64,000 bases of DNA, taken from contig JAFGAR010000101.1 in the NCBI GenBank assembly GCA_016933575.1, positions 64,001 to 128,000 on the forward strand, read 5' to 3'. The translations under genes were made by a program, and so were the position numbers. Positions within the stretch are counted from its first letter, which is position 1. Each line of letters begins with the position of its first letter. Below the pieces are notes generated by a model. That model saw only the letters and a program-made list of their open reading frames with translations, had not been told where the DNA came from and made no database searches. Shown piece by piece: positions 1,028 to 11,323 of this stretch. This DNA comes from Candidatus Thorarchaeota archaeon (lineage in GTDB: Archaea; Asgardarchaeota; Thorarchaeia; Thorarchaeales; Thorarchaeaceae).

Positions 1028-1150
1028 CTCTATCTTAATCACTAACCTTATTTACACGGTGACCAACATATATGAAGGGAACCAAAAAGGGAGGGTAAAT
1101 TAAGCCAAAAAATATACTTAGACTCGATAGACCCAGTGGAGCGCGCAACT

Positions 1151-1738
1151 ATGAAGGATCAAGACGATGGCAGCAAAATAATGAAAGCTGTCCTTATTGG
1201 AGACGGAGCTGTTGGGAAGACAAGCATTCGTCGTAACTATTTGGGGGAAGATTTCACTGAGGGACATATCGCTACTATTGGTGTAGATTTAGCTACTAAA
1301 CGTGTTCTCTTTGATCAAGAAGTCGTGAAATTTATTATTTGGGATCTTGCAGGTCAACCGACATTTGAAAAGGTTCGTGGCCATTACTATGCTGGATGTA
1401 ATGGAATCCTCCTAGTCTATTCGGTCACAGATCGTGATTCTTTCGATAATGCATCAAAATGGCTTGTTGAGGCATTCAAGAACATGGGACCTCTTCCGCC
1501 CACGATAATAATTGGCAACAAGACCGACCTCCGGCATTCATATGACAAGAAAAAATACGTTACAACGGAGGAAGGTCAGAAATTCACGGAGTACTTCATT
1601 GAGAAGCTTGGCGTTCCTGCTGTATTCCACGAAACGAGTGCAAAGACCGGTACCGGAATTCAAGATGCATTTACACAACTGCTGCAAATGATGAGTGACG
1701 AAGAAGAGAAGAAAGAGAGCGAGCACTTCATTGGCTGA
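1151..1738 (+). CDS. Rab/Ras-like small GTPase
   Basis: G1 GDGAVGKT, G2 TIGVD, G3 WDLAGQ, G4 NKTD, G5 SAK. No C-terminal prenylation cysteines. ATG 1151 chosen over GTG 1136. Confidence 0.93.
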   Translation: MKDQDDGSKIMKAVLIGDGAVGKTSIRRNYLGEDFTEGHIATIGVDLATKRVLFDQEVVKFIIWDLAGQPTFEKVRGHYYAGCNGILLVYSVTDRDSFDNASKWLVEAFKNMGPLPPTIIIGNKTDLRHSYDKKKYVTTEEGQKFTEYFIEKLGVPAVFHETSAKTGTGIQDAFTQLLQMMSDEEEKKESEHFIG

Positions 1739-5583: not shown

Positions 5584-5616
5584 AGTGGCTGCTAGGTCTT
5601 GTAACCTAGAGCCACT
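5584..5616 (-). terminator. stem-loop after the 15-TM gene, probable terminator or 3' stabiliser
   Basis: AGTGGCT-G-CTAGGT / ACCTAG-AGCCACT inverted repeat, 11 nt past the stop, followed by a T-rich run on the - strand. Confidence 0.55.
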
Positions 5617-5627
5617 TCACTTTAGAT

Positions 5628-7049
5628 TCACTGCTTGTTTCTTTCCAATCTACCAGTGATAGAGAGCCAAAATACTAGGAAGGAGACTACAACGAGACCA
5701 TATCCTGGATCTAGGAATGGAAATTCCAATAAGAGAAGCGGAAATCGGATCAGAATATAGAGAAGCAAACCAATCGCCATTCCCAAAGGTCTTGACCTTC
5801 CTGGAGTTCCTGCCCTCTTCATTCTTCTCCAAGTTATCGAGAACATAATTACCGGAAGGAAGAATAACAGCATGACAAGGCCTCCAAGATACCAATAGTT
5901 GAGAAATGCAACACTCACAGGGTCTGGATACGACTGAACCATCAGGAGAATTGTAGGAACATAGATTATCACAGGTATAGAAGCTGCAGTACGATATCCT
6001 GCAGCAAGGAATGCAACTGCTGTGAAAACAATCAACGCAAATGACGATGCTACAAGATCAAAATAGACTCCAGTGACAGTTGTAAACAGGCCAATATTTC
6101 CAAACATTCCAATCATTTGACCTGCTGCAAATGAAGCAAATATTATCATTAGCATAGCTGTTGGTAGTTGTTTTGTTTCTCTCCATCTTCCAAATGTATA
6201 AGCTGCAGTACCAGCCGCAAGCATGATAGCAAAGGCTCCCATTATCCCTGTCACAAAGATGCCGATGTCTGTGTATACTCCCGTTGTTACTAGACTAATA
6301 ACAAGGAATAATGGCCCTGCAAAACTTGCTCCATATCCAAATAGTTCTGCAGAAATTTTCTGGTCGGGTCGTAAGAAAGCAAATGAAATCATAGCCGGTC
6401 CCATCATGGCAAATACGGAAATCACCAGTATAATTTCAATTGGAATGATAGAAAATAGACGTGGTACTGCAAGAACCTGTACAATCATCGCATAACCCAA
6501 AGCCAGGCTTGTGCTTCTTTTTGTGTCATAGGCTATCCATGAAAAGAGCGTAGCATTGGCTGCAAGAAGAATCATGGACAGGATATTTCCGAAATTGATA
6601 AGGTATTCAGCCACATTACTTACTCTAGAACTGCCAATAGTAATCACTGCATTAAACCATAAGATGTACGCGAGTAGAATCATCACAATCATGAATACGA
6701 AGAGTGCTCGTTGTTTGAGGATCAAAGTTGCTGAGATTGTGAGAAAGACTAATTCGATTAATGTAAAGATATAGAATATCGAGTAATTGTTCAGATAATC
6801 GTTGTATAATGCGATATTTGAATCAGCAAGCCATATGGAAATATTTCCATTTAGCACAAAATAAGTAAGTACAACCCCAATACCGAAAATAATCAGTCCG
6901 ATTGCAAAGATGTACAATGGTCTGAATGCTTTCTTGATTTCAGGGTCTGGAGATGCCGCTGACCTCTTGCGGCTGTAGTTGATGATGGTTCCTGCTGCAA
7001 CGAATGTTGCTAATCCAAGAAACAAATAGGCAATCTCATAGATTTCCAT
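5628..7049 (-). CDS. hypothetical polytopic membrane protein (about 15 TM, apparent 7+1+7 duplication)
   Basis: 473 aa with about 15 hydrophobic segments. A GGAGG SD overlaps the upstream gene's stop codon. No transporter motif recognised. Confidence 0.8.
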   Translation of the reverse strand: MEIYEIAYLFLGLATFVAAGTIINYSRKRSAASPDPEIKKAFRPLYIFAIGLIIFGIGVVLTYFVLNGNISIWLADSNIALYNDYLNNYSIFYIFTLIELVFLTISATLILKQRALFVFMIVMILLAYILWFNAVITIGSSRVSNVAEYLINFGNILSMILLAANATLFSWIAYDTKRSTSLALGYAMIVQVLAVPRLFSIIPIEIILVISVFAMMGPAMISFAFLRPDQKISAELFGYGASFAGPLFLVISLVTTGVYTDIGIFVTGIMGAFAIMLAAGTAAYTFGRWRETKQLPTAMLMIIFASFAAGQMIGMFGNIGLFTTVTGVYFDLVASSFALIVFTAVAFLAAGYRTAASIPVIIYVPTILLMVQSYPDPVSVAFLNYWYLGGLVMLLFFLPVIMFSITWRRMKRAGTPGRSRPLGMAIGLLLYILIRFPLLLLEFPFLDPGYGLVVVSFLVFWLSITGRLERNKQ

Positions 7050-7061
7050 TCATTTGGCCTC

Positions 7062-7496
7062 CTAGAAAACTTTCTTCCCCCATTCCTTCGCAGCTGAACT
7101 AGTTTCATTTGTCCAACCACGAATTCCACTTCGTACTTTTTCAATCTCCTCAGGACTACTCTCACGAGTTATCATTTCAGCTATTAGATTTAGAACACCA
7201 TCATCAATGTCGTCTCCTTGTTCGTTCACGAATTTAATGACAGCTCTGTTGTGTTCTTTAGCTCCTTTGTCATTGAATGCATGAAGGGTCACGACATAAT
7301 TTTCGCCAGCCTTTCCAATGAGTAATTTCAATTCTCCAAATTGAAGCTCGTTTATTTCGTTTCCAGAAATTTTCTTAATGAACATCTGGAGTGCAGATAC
7401 AAAACCACCAAGTAGCGCTGAGTCTCCCTCAAGGTTTTCCCAGCCCATACTGGCTATTGTTTCGCCGGCGTCGTTGATTAGGAAGATACCGTACAT
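7062..7496 (-). CDS. longin-like domain protein
   Basis: N-terminal pattern GIFLINDAGETI...DSALLGGFVSALQMF...INELQFGELKLLI matches the beta-beta-alpha-beta-beta-beta longin/sensor-like pattern common in Asgard archaea. Confidence 0.7.
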   Translation of the reverse strand: MYGIFLINDAGETIASMGWENLEGDSALLGGFVSALQMFIKKISGNEINELQFGELKLLIGKAGENYVVTLHAFNDKGAKEHNRAVIKFVNEQGDDIDDGVLNLIAEMITRESSPEEIEKVRSGIRGWTNETSSAAKEWGKKVF

Positions 7497-7578
7497 TGTC
7501 GTTGATCCCCGCTTGTGATATGCTATTTGAAGTTACCATGATGCGGCAGACCATGGTAGTTCCGGCGTGAGAGGCTAT

Positions 7579-7595
7579 TGCTTATATATTAAGCA
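7579..7595. promoter_or_regulatory. palindrome around a TATA-like box upstream of the longin-like gene
   Basis: TGCTTA-TATAT-TAAGCA, about 83 nt upstream of the ATG at 7496 (- strand). Confidence 0.4.
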
Positions 7596-7655
7596 TTTCT
7601 AGTAGCATATATTAGCAAATTTACCCATGCATTTGAAACCACGAGATTTGAGAGC

Positions 7656-7967
7656 CTAAAACGATTCAAACCAACCCTTTGTCTTGTCGATAGCATCCTT
7701 TTCTTCTTCGGTAGCTTCCGCTGCTACTTCTACATCTCGAACCTGAAAATTAGCATCAACAAAAGCAACTAGAGAATGTCCCTTTGTGCACTTTGCTGTC
7801 ACAATTGTTGGATAACGCTTAGCCTGAGTTATCTGACGTTCTTCGACCTCAACGTATACCAAGTTATTGTCAGGGCACGATGGACATGCAAAAGGTTTGA
7901 GTTTAATCTTTGGCAATAGGTTGTCTCCGTCGTCTCGAGGTCCAGAGATTAGACCGAATCTCTGCAT
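7656..7967 (-). CDS. small Zn-ribbon-like protein
   Basis: CPSC...CTKGH putative Zn ligands, then VAFVDANFQVRD. A TTG start at 7916 with a GGAG SD is possible. Confidence 0.7.
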   Translation of the reverse strand: MQRFGLISGPRDDGDNLLPKIKLKPFACPSCPDNNLVYVEVEERQITQAKRYPTIVTAKCTKGHSLVAFVDANFQVRDVEVAAEATEEEKDAIDKTKGWFESF

Positions 7968-8016
7968 ATATTGATATTTGCTACAAATCCAACTAGAAGA
8001 AAAGACATTGTAATAC

Positions 8017-8589
8017 TTAGAATTGTGGCTTTACATACCTGTCTGCTAGGAATTTACCTACTGCATTGAACATTTCAGGGACGCCCTGCCCGGTCTTTGC
8101 TGACACCTCGAAAACTTGAGCATTGTATTTCTTTGCGTATTCTTGAGCCTCTTCAAGAGATACTCCCATACCTGGAAGACGCTCATCTATTTTGTTTCCA
8201 ACAAGAAATATATCACAGTTTGGGACACTACTATGAAGTCTTGAAATCCAATCATCCAGTCTATGCATTGTGAATGAACGGCTTACCTCGTATACCGCAA
8301 TTCCTATCTTAGAGCCTCTGAAATAGTCCATCACAACATCCTGAAAACGAGGTTGGCCTCCAAGATCCCAAATGAGCAGGGTAATCTCAGAGTTTTCTAC
8401 TTGTACCTTTTTTGTGGCAAAATTGACTCCTATGGTCATCTTCATCTGCTGATCGAAACGATCTTCTGTATACCGAACGGCTATGGAAGTCTTGCCTACC
8501 CCACCCTCACCAATCAAAGCTACTTTGAAAATAGGGTTACGCGTGGTCATATCTTGCAGCTCTGTTACTATGGCCGTGAGAACCGGCAT
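8017..8589 (-). CDS. Rab-like small GTPase
   Basis: G1 GEGGVGKT, G2 TIGVNF, G3 WDLGGQ, G4 NKID, G5 SAK. Alternative ATG at 8550. Confidence 0.93.
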   Translation of the reverse strand: MPVLTAIVTELQDMTTRNPIFKVALIGEGGVGKTSIAVRYTEDRFDQQMKMTIGVNFATKKVQVENSEITLLIWDLGGQPRFQDVVMDYFRGSKIGIAVYEVSRSFTMHRLDDWISRLHSSVPNCDIFLVGNKIDERLPGMGVSLEEAQEYAKKYNAQVFEVSAKTGQGVPEMFNAVGKFLADRYVKPQF

Positions 8590-8617: not shown

Positions 8618-9523
8618 TTAATTTAGGTAGAATGTGCCTTCAGCGACTAGTCTGACTCTACCTGCGACATAGATTTCTTCCATACTCTCATTTGGAATTG
8701 TGGCAATTAACCGACTTGGCCGATTGACTTCATAACCCTGTTCAATATCAATTGGCTGTCCAAAGTCATGACCTTTGAGTATGTTGTATTTTTCAAGATA
8801 AGCTCCGAGTGGTCCAGCTGCACTTCCAGTTGCTGGATCCTCTAATACTCCTACACTCGGTGCAAAGATACGGGCGTGGACTGACGAGTTTCTGTTGACG
8901 GTTTCAGTGGTAAAGATGAGAATTTTTTGCGTCGATAATTCCTTCAGGTTTTCTAGAATCAGATTTGGATTTGGCACAGCTCTCTGGACTGCTGAGAGAG
9001 TAGAAATCGGAACTATCAAGAAAGGAAATCCAGTTGTTACCACCTGAACTGGACATTTTGTAGAGATATCTTTCTGCTCCAGTCCAATCGCCTCACAAAT
9101 CTTCTTTGTATCACTAACTTCTTCCATAAACGATGGAGCGGGTTGTGACATCTGGATTCTGTTACTATCTAAATATTCAACACGGATTGGTCCGATGCCC
9201 AACTGAACCAATATCGTCTTTTCGTCCGAACGTACTGTTCCTTTGTATTTTGCGACAAATGTTGAACCAAGAGTTGGATGTCCTGCGAATTGTAGCTCAT
9301 TACTGGGTGTGAAAATGCGTATCTTAGAACGACACCCTTTCATCGTAGGCTCTTCAAGAAAGGTCGACTCTGAGAAATTCAACTGTCGTGCAATGCCCTG
9401 CATCTCATCCTTGTTGAGAGCTTTGTTGAGTGAAGTATCCCAGAATGTGGCCAGATGATTTCCTCCAAATGGATATTTCTCATCCACAAAGACACTTGTC
9501 TGTACATAAGGAATAGATTTCAT
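8618..9523 (-). CDS. PhzF family isomerase/epimerase
   Basis: FGGN, NFSESTF, RIFTP.NELQFAGHPTLG, EDPATGSA and EQG motifs. Confidence 0.92.
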   Translation of the reverse strand: MKSIPYVQTSVFVDEKYPFGGNHLATFWDTSLNKALNKDEMQGIARQLNFSESTFLEEPTMKGCRSKIRIFTPSNELQFAGHPTLGSTFVAKYKGTVRSDEKTILVQLGIGPIRVEYLDSNRIQMSQPAPSFMEEVSDTKKICEAIGLEQKDISTKCPVQVVTTGFPFLIVPISTLSAVQRAVPNPNLILENLKELSTQKILIFTTETVNRNSSVHARIFAPSVGVLEDPATGSAAGPLGAYLEKYNILKGHDFGQPIDIEQGYEVNRPSRLIATIPNESMEEIYVAGRVRLVAEGTFYLN

Positions 9524-10054: not shown

Positions 10055-10246
10055 TGCTTCTCAATAGGTTCCATTCCGTTATTTGATTATCGTCTTTTCA
10101 TCTTTGTAGTATAATGGTAACATTATGTGACCCCATTTTGTGCCCATTCTTTATATACCAATTATCGAATAAACTAATAGAATTCGGTCTGAGACTTTAT
10201 CACTCAGAACGATTGTTAACGTGTGCTGGATTTGAGGTTTGAAAAA

Positions 10247-11323
10247 ATGAAACCAACCGATGACAATGAGGCTCCATCAGATGATACACCAATCGATGAT
10301 GAGGAGCCTTTTGATGTTGAAATAGAAATCAGACGAAAAAGGAAACTAAGGCGAAAGAGGTCTCCAGGACGTGAATATGCTTCTCTGATCAGCTTTGCTG
10401 CTTGGGCAATATTTACAGTCATCTGGCTATTCTTCTTTGCCAGTGGATACGGGCTCTTCCAGAATATCGCAGTTGTCTTCATTGCACTGTTGATCATTGG
10501 TGCTTTTAATGCATTAATTTGGATACCTTCTGTTGAAGGGCGTAAACCCAAAGCTAGTGCTGTAAGCGGAATTCTTTGGATCGCCTTTCTAATAATCTGG
10601 ATTATGTTCCTTGCAGTAGGCTTCGGATTTTATGAGAATATTGGTATTGCTCTTGCATCATTCTTGATAATAGGGGCTGTAAATATTCTACTATGGATGC
10701 CAAAGCATGGTGATGAGGGCGGTGCTAGAATAAGTGCCATATCTGCTGTCGGATGGTTGACTTTCCTTGTACTCTGGCTTCCATTTGCTGACAACTTCTC
10801 AGCTTCAATCTATCCGATTAATTTCTATCAGTCCGCATCAATCGTACTATTCTCATTACTATTGATGCTCATATTAGTGATTGCACCATGGAGAAACAAG
10901 ATGCAAATTACCATTGATGATCATGTATCTGTTGGATCTAGACCGAAGGCAACAATTGGATTACTATTCCTGTGGATACTTTTCTTGGCAATATGGATGT
11001 GGATCTTTGCTATTGATTTCTCAGGATATCAAAATTCAGCAGCTGTTCTATTCTCTTTTGCAATCTATGTTGCTATCACAATAGGATTATGGCTTCCATG
11101 GGCTCGACGTAGAGATGAAGGTCCAGAGAGTTGGTTCTCAATTGGACTGGCTTTTGCCTGGGTTCTTACATTGGCCTTGTGGTTCTGGTTCTTTGCTGAT
11201 AACTTCGACATGTACCAGAATCTAGCGATATTCCTTGTATCACTTCTAGCTATGGCAGCTATTAGTGGAAGTGCTCAATGGCTGAAATGGCATGACTTCG
11301 AAGCAATGGATTGGGAAGACTAA
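10247..11323 (+). CDS. hypothetical membrane protein with five tandem 2-TM hairpin repeats
   Basis: Five repeats of W-x2-F-x3-W...[YF][QE][NS]. ATG 10247 is preceded by GAGG. Confidence 0.8.
   Translation: MKPTDDNEAPSDDTPIDDEEPFDVEIEIRRKRKLRRKRSPGREYASLISFAAWAIFTVIWLFFFASGYGLFQNIAVVFIALLIIGAFNALIWIPSVEGRKPKASAVSGILWIAFLIIWIMFLAVGFGFYENIGIALASFLIIGAVNILLWMPKHGDEGGARISAISAVGWLTFLVLWLPFADNFSASIYPINFYQSASIVLFSLLLMLILVIAPWRNKMQITIDDHVSVGSRPKATIGLLFLWILFLAIWMWIFAIDFSGYQNSAAVLFSFAIYVAITIGLWLPWARRRDEGPESWFSIGLAFAWVLTLALWFWFFADNFDMYQNLAIFLVSLLAMAAISGSAQWLKWHDFEAMDWED

Follow-up and report, generated by a model that had tools for sequence, protein, structure and literature searches.

A conserved four-gene cassette of Asgard archaea groups a Rab-like GTPase with a zinc-ribbon protein, a longin-type protein and a predicted double seven-helix membrane protein

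Introduction

Longin and roadblock domains serve small GTPases as platforms, guanine nucleotide exchange factors (GEFs) or GTPase-activating proteins (GAPs) (PMC3747258, PMC10933270). The conservons of actinobacteria combine a sensor kinase (CvnA), a roadblock protein acting as GAP (CvnB/MfpD), a DUF742 protein acting as GEF (CvnC/MfpC) and a Ras-like GTPase (CvnD/MfpB) (PMC13343842, PMC13621833, PMC11343762). Surveys of Asgard archaea have reported abundant longin, roadblock and GTPase genes, fusions, and an operon of LAMTOR1-like, Rab-like and DENN genes (10.1101/2020.10.19.343400; PMC10933270); the GTPase genes of strain MK-D1 are generally not found in operons with regulators, and cognate pairs are unreadable from its genome (PMC10933270). 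A 2026 preprint places seven-transmembrane (7TM) and GPCR-like clusters among the families that Asgard archaea have in common with eukaryotes (10.64898/2026.10.28.762692). Here we describe a cassette of four genes, encoding a Rab-like GTPase, a zinc-ribbon protein, a longin-fold protein and a 15-helix membrane protein, at positions 5628-8589 of a 64,000-nucleotide stretch of Candidatus Thorarchaeota archaeon DNA (assembly GCA_016933575.1, contig JAFGAR010000101.1, positions 64,001 to 128,000; hereafter the window) that is part of a 3.47-Mb metagenome-assembled genome (MAG) of 85.5% completeness.

We propose, with a probability of about 0.55, that this quartet encodes one membrane-associated small-GTPase switch in which the state of the membrane protein is relayed to the GTPase via the longin-fold and zinc-ribbon proteins. 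Small GTPases and longin or roadblock proteins are encoded by the dozen in Asgard archaea, whose genomes generally do not reveal which GTPase belongs with which regulator; the cassette is an exception. It singles out one GTPase together with its likely longin partner, a further small regulator and a partner in the membrane, in a set small enough for expression and reconstitution, and three of its four proteins belong to no curated family.

Results and discussion

Four genes kept together across rearrangement and duplication

The cassette and its associated signals comprise the following features, in the order of transcription:

8017-8589, minus strand: gene for a Rab-like small GTPase (190-residue open reading frame (ORF); start possibly at Met14, as in orthologues)
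7656-7967, minus strand: gene for a zinc-ribbon protein (103-residue ORF; product probably 86 residues, from the TTG at 7916)
7581-7613, minus strand: AT-rich, TATA-like box, a possible internal promoter, within the 159-nucleotide spacer between the zinc-ribbon and longin genes
7062-7496, minus strand: gene for a longin-fold protein (144 residues)
7058-7062, minus strand: GGAGG Shine-Dalgarno-like motif, overlapping the longin stop codon and 8 nucleotides before the ATG of the membrane-protein gene
5628-7049, minus strand: gene for a 15-helix membrane protein (473 residues)
5584-5616, minus strand: stem-loop with a T-rich run, 11 nucleotides past the stop codon of the membrane-protein gene

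A preliminary description of the locus, made from its letters and ORFs, had proposed four co-oriented genes for a Rab-like GTPase, a zinc ribbon, a longin-like protein and a double-7TM membrane protein, and both the arrangement on one strand and the four assignments are borne out by the analyses reported below. Its tight coupling of the last two genes can be read directly in the sequence: the TAG of the longin gene occupies 7064-7062 and the ATG of the membrane-protein gene 7049-7047, leaving a 12-nucleotide spacer with GGAGG lying over the stop codon. The same two genes lie 3-13 nucleotides apart or overlap in nearly all other loci.

The preliminary description had named neighbourhood conservation among the checks on its proposal. 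We scanned one genome per GTDB species and obtained 27 loci, 23 of them with enough flanking sequence to be assessed; 22 of these 23, distributed over Thorarchaeota-type MAGs, Atabeyarchaeum and the isolate LC30, hold all four genes, in two gene orders and two paralogous sets. The order of the window (GTPase, zinc ribbon, longin, membrane protein) is kept by seven relatives of the same genus at 36-85% identity, two of which are divergent species with different flanks, while another family (genome G036), Candidatus Atabeyarchaeum deiterrae (CP147780.1) and LC30 have the zinc-ribbon gene first and the GTPase gene last, after the membrane-protein gene. At one locus, the GTPase gene stands convergent after the membrane-protein gene. 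In addition, many genomes of the family, often the very ones that carry the first cassette type, contain a complete paralogous quartet in the GTPase-last order with genes that overlap or nearly abut. The quartet persists where the membrane proteins have diverged to about 18-30% identity, and a clustering of all flanking ORFs showed no other neighbour family that recurs across the quartet loci, whose flanks are ordinary housekeeping genes, syntenic among close relatives. This conservation goes far beyond chance and, because the genes have stayed together while their order changed and the entire set was duplicated, strongly supports the view that they form a functionally linked unit.

A profile search of 400 genomes of the phylum recovered the membrane-protein family from 50, including 43 of 85 in the family of the window (15 of 27 in its own genus), 3 of 3 in a second family and 3 of 19 in a third. 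It was not found among the genomes searched from the remaining families, one of which is represented by 135 genomes.

Some variants of the cassette deserve mention. On the same contig, about 49 kb beyond the window (177370-180016), lies a very divergent, tightly packed cassette of the same architecture (L095) that encodes a zinc-ribbon protein of 94 residues, a 129-residue protein, a 463-residue membrane protein and a GTPase of 185 residues. Its link to the present quartet at the sequence level is partial: the zinc-ribbon proteins (3e-13) and the GTPases (1e-30) match, and the membrane and middle proteins are not detectably similar. In one subclade of the cassette-bearing genomes, the gene immediately upstream of that for the cassette GTPase, frequently present twice, encodes a 273-residue protein (L026, 7894-8715, minus strand, and 8 further loci); it has a weak HTH_20 match at 8e-6 (26.2 bits, where the cut-off is 27) and could be a lineage-specific output or regulator. 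Besides the GTPase gene that follows its membrane-protein gene, Atabeyarchaeum has another member of the cassette clade (L059, 2267-2785), about 0.8 kb upstream of the zinc-ribbon gene.

A Rab-like GTPase without a prenylation motif

The GTPase matches the Pfam Ras family at 4.7e-40. Its best sequence matches in the PDB are Rab18 (3.7e-32) and the crystallised Thorarchaeota Rab known as Thor-Rab (7EZB, 1e-31), and all of the top matches there are Rabs or Thor-Rab. The canonical G1-G5 elements (GEGGVGKT, T52, WDLGGQ, NKID and SAK) are invariant or nearly so among 21-23 cassette orthologues, in which the first and fourth take the general forms GxGGVGKT and NKxD and the catalytic Gln never varies. 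The segments IGVNF, RFQ, YFRGS and VYEVS resemble the RabF1, F3, F4 and F5 motifs. Neither this protein, which ends in RYVKPQF, nor its orthologues carry a C-terminal cysteine motif for geranylgeranylation. By its sequence, the protein is thus best described as a Rab-like member of the Ras superfamily with a complete set of catalytic motifs that lacks the prenylation cysteines of eukaryotic Rabs. It also has a methionine where Thor-Rab has an MglA-like arginine, a residue of Thor-Rab that has been discussed previously (PMC10933270).

This genome encodes 16 other single-domain small GTPases; in a maximum-likelihood tree, the cassette GTPases are split from 14 of them with a support of 92/98, the remaining two being very long branches. 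Among these background GTPases groups a second Ras-family protein of the window (1136-1738, plus strand; 200 residues, Pfam Ras 5e-43), which is encoded convergently about 4 kb past the membrane-protein gene, has an orthologue at the equivalent place in close relatives and falls outside the cassette clade.

A longin-fold protein related to a GTPase fusion

The 144-residue protein matches no Pfam or NCBIfam family. Its AlphaFold2 (AF2) model (predicted local distance difference test score (pLDDT) 70) shows the succession b-b-a-b-b-b-a-a followed by a disordered tail that ends in a conserved WGKKVF. A Foldseek search with this model returned AP2 sigma (E 1e-4, template-modelling score (TM-score) 0.61), and an exhaustive structural aligner (VIA) matched it to delta-COP (Z 11.4), Sec22 (10.9), synbindin (10.7) and VAMP7 (10.6), with sedlin, Mon1-Ccz1, CPLANE and GATOR1 among the further matches. 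The topology and these matches to solved longins agree with the longin-like character proposed before. Roadblock structures match at lower Z and over residues 1-95 only; the model opens with a strand instead of the N-terminal helix of roadblock proteins and possesses the C-terminal helices of the longin type, and the Robl_LC7 profile finds no match in the protein. As modelled, the protein therefore has a longin fold and not a roadblock/LC7 fold.

A remote homologue of the longin domain makes up the N-terminal domain of a 313-residue fusion with an Arf/Ras GTPase (hhalign probability 96.5%, E 9e-10) that is encoded in a 1.4-Mb genome of the same phylum, and such a protein makes a classical Rosetta-stone case for a direct partnership of this longin family with small GTPases. 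The homologous fusion protein gives weak signals for Fuz_longin_1 (2.8e-4) and Clat_adaptor_s (1.4e-3), both under the curated cut-offs, and structural look-alikes of the longin protein in the ESM Atlas likewise carry weak Fuz_longin_1 signals. Among 35 longin orthologues we found no invariant or near-invariant arginine, a comparison with the fingers of the FLCN, NPRL2 and SMCR8 type that was made by sequence only.

Longin-type domains occur in other settings as well. In other families of the phylum, they are fused to the zinc-ribbon-rich TackOD1 output domain (L062, 2123-3256; L063, 1769-2977) and, at another locus (L064), to a winged helix; the longin-type domain serves as a module in several signalling architectures. 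In the genome of the window, a longin paralogue of 125 residues and about 34% identity (L028 on contig C198, 4542-6392) stands without a membrane-protein or GTPase partner and adjoins a Robl_LC7 roadblock protein (9.8e-12); the same locus encodes a 306-residue protein with a Pro/Thr-rich linker and an N-terminus that looks gelsolin-like by eye.

A small zinc-ribbon protein

The orthologues of the zinc-ribbon protein begin 17 residues downstream of the ORF start and the ESM Atlas record begins at residue 18, from which it follows that the product is probably the 86-residue protein initiated at the TTG at 7916. Two metal-binding knuckles, CPxC and Cx3H, are invariant in 22 sequences, and the full set of invariant residues comprises C28, P29, C31, R51, C60, H64, R77 and D78. 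The presence of both knuckles identifies this small Cys/His protein as a putative zinc ribbon, as the preliminary description had it. Its C-terminal tail is conserved and contains a tryptophan within the form DKTKxWFxSL. No Pfam, NCBIfam or PADLOC family matched the protein, and a search for longer, fused forms of it found none, which is weak evidence. The TackOD1 domain was considered as a relative and dismissed, since the CPxC knuckle alone aligned, at a probability of 27%.

A membrane protein of two seven-helix units

The AF2 model of the membrane protein is of high confidence (pLDDT 93, predicted TM-score 0.87) and consists of 15 long helices without a soluble domain. The helices are arranged as 7+1+7, with two units that both run N-out to C-in, as assigned by the positive-inside rule, and are joined by helix 8, in keeping with the double-7TM architecture suspected earlier. 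Residues 255-471 superpose on the G protein-coupled receptor (GPCR) ADGRL3 with Z 14.6 and a root-mean-square deviation of 3.7 Å over 200 residues, and 49 of the 50 structural matches listed are GPCR, GPCR-like-design or rhodopsin chains aligned to the C-terminal half, which in the model thus resembles a GPCR-type 7TM bundle. The look-alikes of this half in the ESM Atlas are HlyIII proteins and, in sensor kinases and diguanylate cyclases, the 7TM input domains. Residues 1-229 form a second helical bundle whose best solved match (5jsi_A, Z 11.0) lies within the background of helical proteins. A comparison of the two halves with hhalign (E 2e-4, probability 45%, in a register of TM1 to TM9) gives a weak indication of an internal duplication.

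At the sequence level, the protein matches no Pfam or NCBIfam family and no 7tm Pfam family at E up to 1; with neither a sequence match nor GPCR signature motifs, we do not count it as a member of the GPCR family by homology. In each 7TM unit, a DRY-like arginine where the third helix ends was considered as a candidate feature and dropped, because R114 and R353 are only moderately conserved. Foldseek found nothing in the PDB at E <= 0.001, and we discounted its top row there, LYCHOS/GPR155 (E 0.11, TM-score 0.29), as lacking significance. The family is a small one: a profile search covering 1.84 billion cluster representatives returned 66 proteins, nearly all of them full-length or fragments, with the same architecture. 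Conservation is concentrated on one side of the membrane: 33 of 113 cytoplasmic positions are at least 90% conserved, compared with 2 of 115 on the outside (Mann-Whitney p = 1e-16), and the variability of the outer face speaks against one conserved ligand on the outside.

Transcription signals and flanking genes

The stem-loop at 5584-5616, with which the preliminary description had closed the unit, has a predicted stability of -23.9 kcal/mol (z = -4.6) that none of 200 shuffled sequences equalled, and it likely marks the end of the transcription unit. Hairpins also stand 3' of the membrane-protein gene in several relatives (comparable ones in G003, G023 and L052); their sequences are not conserved and they are non-homologous. 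An Rfam scan of the region gave no match, and scans for sigma-70 promoters and terminators, models that do not apply to archaea, remained at the level of shuffled sequence. Two metatranscriptome runs from the study of the likely source sample gave no coverage of the region, which speaks neither for nor against its expression.

An internal promoter had been suggested near 7585 and is possible: the TATA-like box at 7581-7613 is kept in four of six close sequences (the window, G017, G003 and G023) and altered in the other two (G001 and G012). Its conservation within the 159-nucleotide spacer may mean that this cassette type consists of two transcription units.

The other caveat raised at the outset concerned a PhzF gene in the same orientation just upstream (8618-9523, 28 nucleotides from the GTPase gene). 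It is absent from that position in G003 and G023 of the same genus and present in only six of the clustered loci, which resolves the caveat, as PhzF is a lineage-specific neighbour outside the module. Along with PhzF, we considered and rejected a TPR protein, a 366-residue membrane protein and an SDR protein as parts of the module, all being conserved only among close relatives. The 366-residue protein (10223-11323, plus strand) has repeated Trp-rich hairpins and no Pfam family.

A candidate membrane-associated switch and its alternatives

How might the four proteins work as a switch? The GTPase carries neither a lipid anchor nor, at the Thor-Rab/MglA position, an intrinsic arginine finger, so it would need partners both for its localisation at the membrane and for the control of its nucleotide state. 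We propose the longin-fold protein as its cognate platform because longin and roadblock domains are known in such roles, and the weak Fuz_longin_1 signals in relatives together with the lack of a conserved arginine somewhat favour a Mon1/Fuz-type exchange factor or adaptor over an arginine-finger GAP. The zinc-ribbon protein would be a second regulator or co-adaptor; that its two invariant arginines make it a GAP or co-adaptor is speculation from sequence. Each of the two small proteins closes with a conserved tail that contains a tryptophan. These tails are candidate docking peptides, and the strongly conserved cytoplasmic loops of the double-7TM protein, the membrane partner, whose conserved residues include R178, R288, R420-P-L-G and G466-R467, would form the surface that receives them. 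Information would then pass from sensor to GTPase, a direction that we infer, like the physical contacts and the GEF and GAP roles within the quartet. A prediction of the four-chain complex with the longin protein as the scored partner reached 0.11 against a mark of 0.32, which is evidence neither way.

Several observations weigh against this proposal. The confidence of the longin model is moderate (pLDDT 70), and the GPCR-like Z of 14.6 is barely above the level that helical bundles reach by their arrangement alone. The poorly conserved outer face of the membrane protein does not favour one conserved external ligand; its homologues were found in only 50 of the 400 phylum genomes searched and in only 15 of 27 in its own genus; and the 159-nucleotide spacer with its conserved TATA-like box suggests two transcription units for this cassette type.

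The most serious alternative reverses the flow of information, such that the membrane protein is the effector, be it a transporter, a channel, or a lipid-handling or membrane-shaping protein, and is governed by the cycle of the GTPase, which the longin and zinc-ribbon proteins would set. The conservation and linkage of the quartet fit this idea equally well, and it is favoured by a protein of 15 helices with no soluble domain that varies on its outer face and is conserved in its helix core and on its cytoplasmic face. The weak Foldseek rows include the transporters MATE and MurJ as well as LYCHOS, a transporter-GPCR hybrid, but the transporter matches reach TM-scores of 0.11-0.25, no transporter family matched by sequence, and receptor-type 7TM bundles, together with the 7TM input domains of sensor kinases and cyclases, are what the protein clearly matches in structure. 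We consider an effector role possible, if unlikely.

Among the structural matches of the longin protein are the longin domains of SRX (2go5, Z 8.2; 5ck3, Z 7.9), and its gene is translationally coupled to that of the membrane protein, which would suit a targeting or biogenesis system in which a longin-GTPase pair like SRX-SRbeta of the signal recognition particle receptor aids the insertion or placement of the adjacent polytopic protein. Yet SRX ranks well below the longins of coats, SNAREs and TRAPP, the GTPase is Rab-like and not Arf/SRbeta-like and has no transmembrane anchor, and the conserved cytoplasmic surface of the mature membrane protein suggests a lasting partnership, all of which renders this explanation improbable.

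Hardly more credit, indeed slightly less, is due to a polarity or motility switch of the MglA/MglB type with the 144-residue protein as a roadblock-type GAP. Its strand-first model with longin-type C-terminal helices, the lower Z and restriction to residues 1-95 of the roadblock matches, the missing Robl_LC7 match and the similarity of the GTPase to Rabs and not to MglA all speak against it, even if MglB, MglC and LAMTOR roadblocks do appear among the structural matches and roadblock genes are common in this genome, one of them adjoining the longin paralogue. Finally, a set of unrelated neighbours or an anti-virus defence island is the least probable explanation. Small NTPases with membrane and zinc-finger partners are known in defence systems and PADLOC weakly matches the GTPase to LeoA (1.2e-5, P-loop region only), but the other three proteins match no PADLOC model, the flanks are syntenic housekeeping genes, and the quartet outlasts changes of order, duplication and divergence of its membrane protein to about 18-30% identity.

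Returning to the membrane-associated switch, it can be taken a step further into an archaeal receptor-to-G-protein pathway, in which the GPCR-shaped double-7TM protein senses a cue from the membrane or from outside and switches the dedicated Rab-like GTPase via a longin exchange factor and a zinc-ribbon co-regulator. We put this forward as a tentative and rather doubtful extension. If it were true, the closest relatives of eukaryotes would hold, in this cassette, a precedent among prokaryotes for the control of small GTPases by 7TM receptors or in the style of Rag and LYCHOS. If the four proteins work together at all, it becomes testable how a Rab-like GTPase without a lipid was recruited to membranes before prenylation, and whether the archaeal relatives of eukaryotes already had 7TM proteins of receptor shape coupled to G proteins.

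Comparison with known systems

The preliminary description knew of no characterised prokaryotic system of this composition. This holds at the level of protein families, none of those that define conservons being matched, and does not hold for the overall logic, which conservons share. Within the papers covered by a full-text literature search, we found no description of the quartet.

The actinobacterial conservons (CvnA-D; Mfp operon) show the same four-gene logic of a membrane input, a small protein of the roadblock/longin type of alpha-beta fold, a second small regulator and a Ras-superfamily GTPase. The parts differ: CvnA is a sensor histidine kinase, whereas the input here would be a kinase-less 15-helix double-7TM protein, and the Robl_LC7 and DUF742 proteins of conservons contrast with a longin, a zinc ribbon and a Rab-like GTPase in an Asgard host. 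HATPase, Robl_LC7 and DUF742 gave no Pfam match on any of the four proteins, which makes the cassette an analogue of the conservon and not a member; by this analogy of logic, we regard the conservon as its closest characterised prokaryotic counterpart.

Among eukaryotic systems, Mon1-Ccz1, Fuzzy/CPLANE, BLOC-3 and the TRAPP core, which are among the structural matches, likewise partner a longin fold with a Rab-type GTPase. They differ from the cassette in that, in eukaryotes, large multi-longin proteins assemble into hetero-oligomeric GEFs whose substrates are prenylated Rabs, whereas here a single 144-residue longin protein, with a presumed GEF role, stands beside a GTPase without a lipid and a polytopic membrane partner of its own. 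LYCHOS signals through the longin-containing GATOR1 to Rag GTPases. With eukaryotic GPCRs, the membrane protein shares a seven-helix bundle, GPCR-like packing, a predicted N-out/C-in orientation and a genetic tie to a G protein; it differs in having no sequence similarity to them and in its partner, a monomeric Rab-like GTPase instead of a heterotrimeric G protein.

Closest by host are the Asgard longin/roadblock-GTPase fusions, to the N-terminus of one of which the longin domain described here is homologous. In the texts of the papers that describe these fusions and the LAMTOR1-like/Rab-like/DENN operon, we found no double-7TM or zinc-ribbon partner. Unlike for the GTPase genes of MK-D1, the cognate partners of this GTPase can be read from gene order, and the cassette belongs with the small-GTPase modules that are coupled to a membrane partner.

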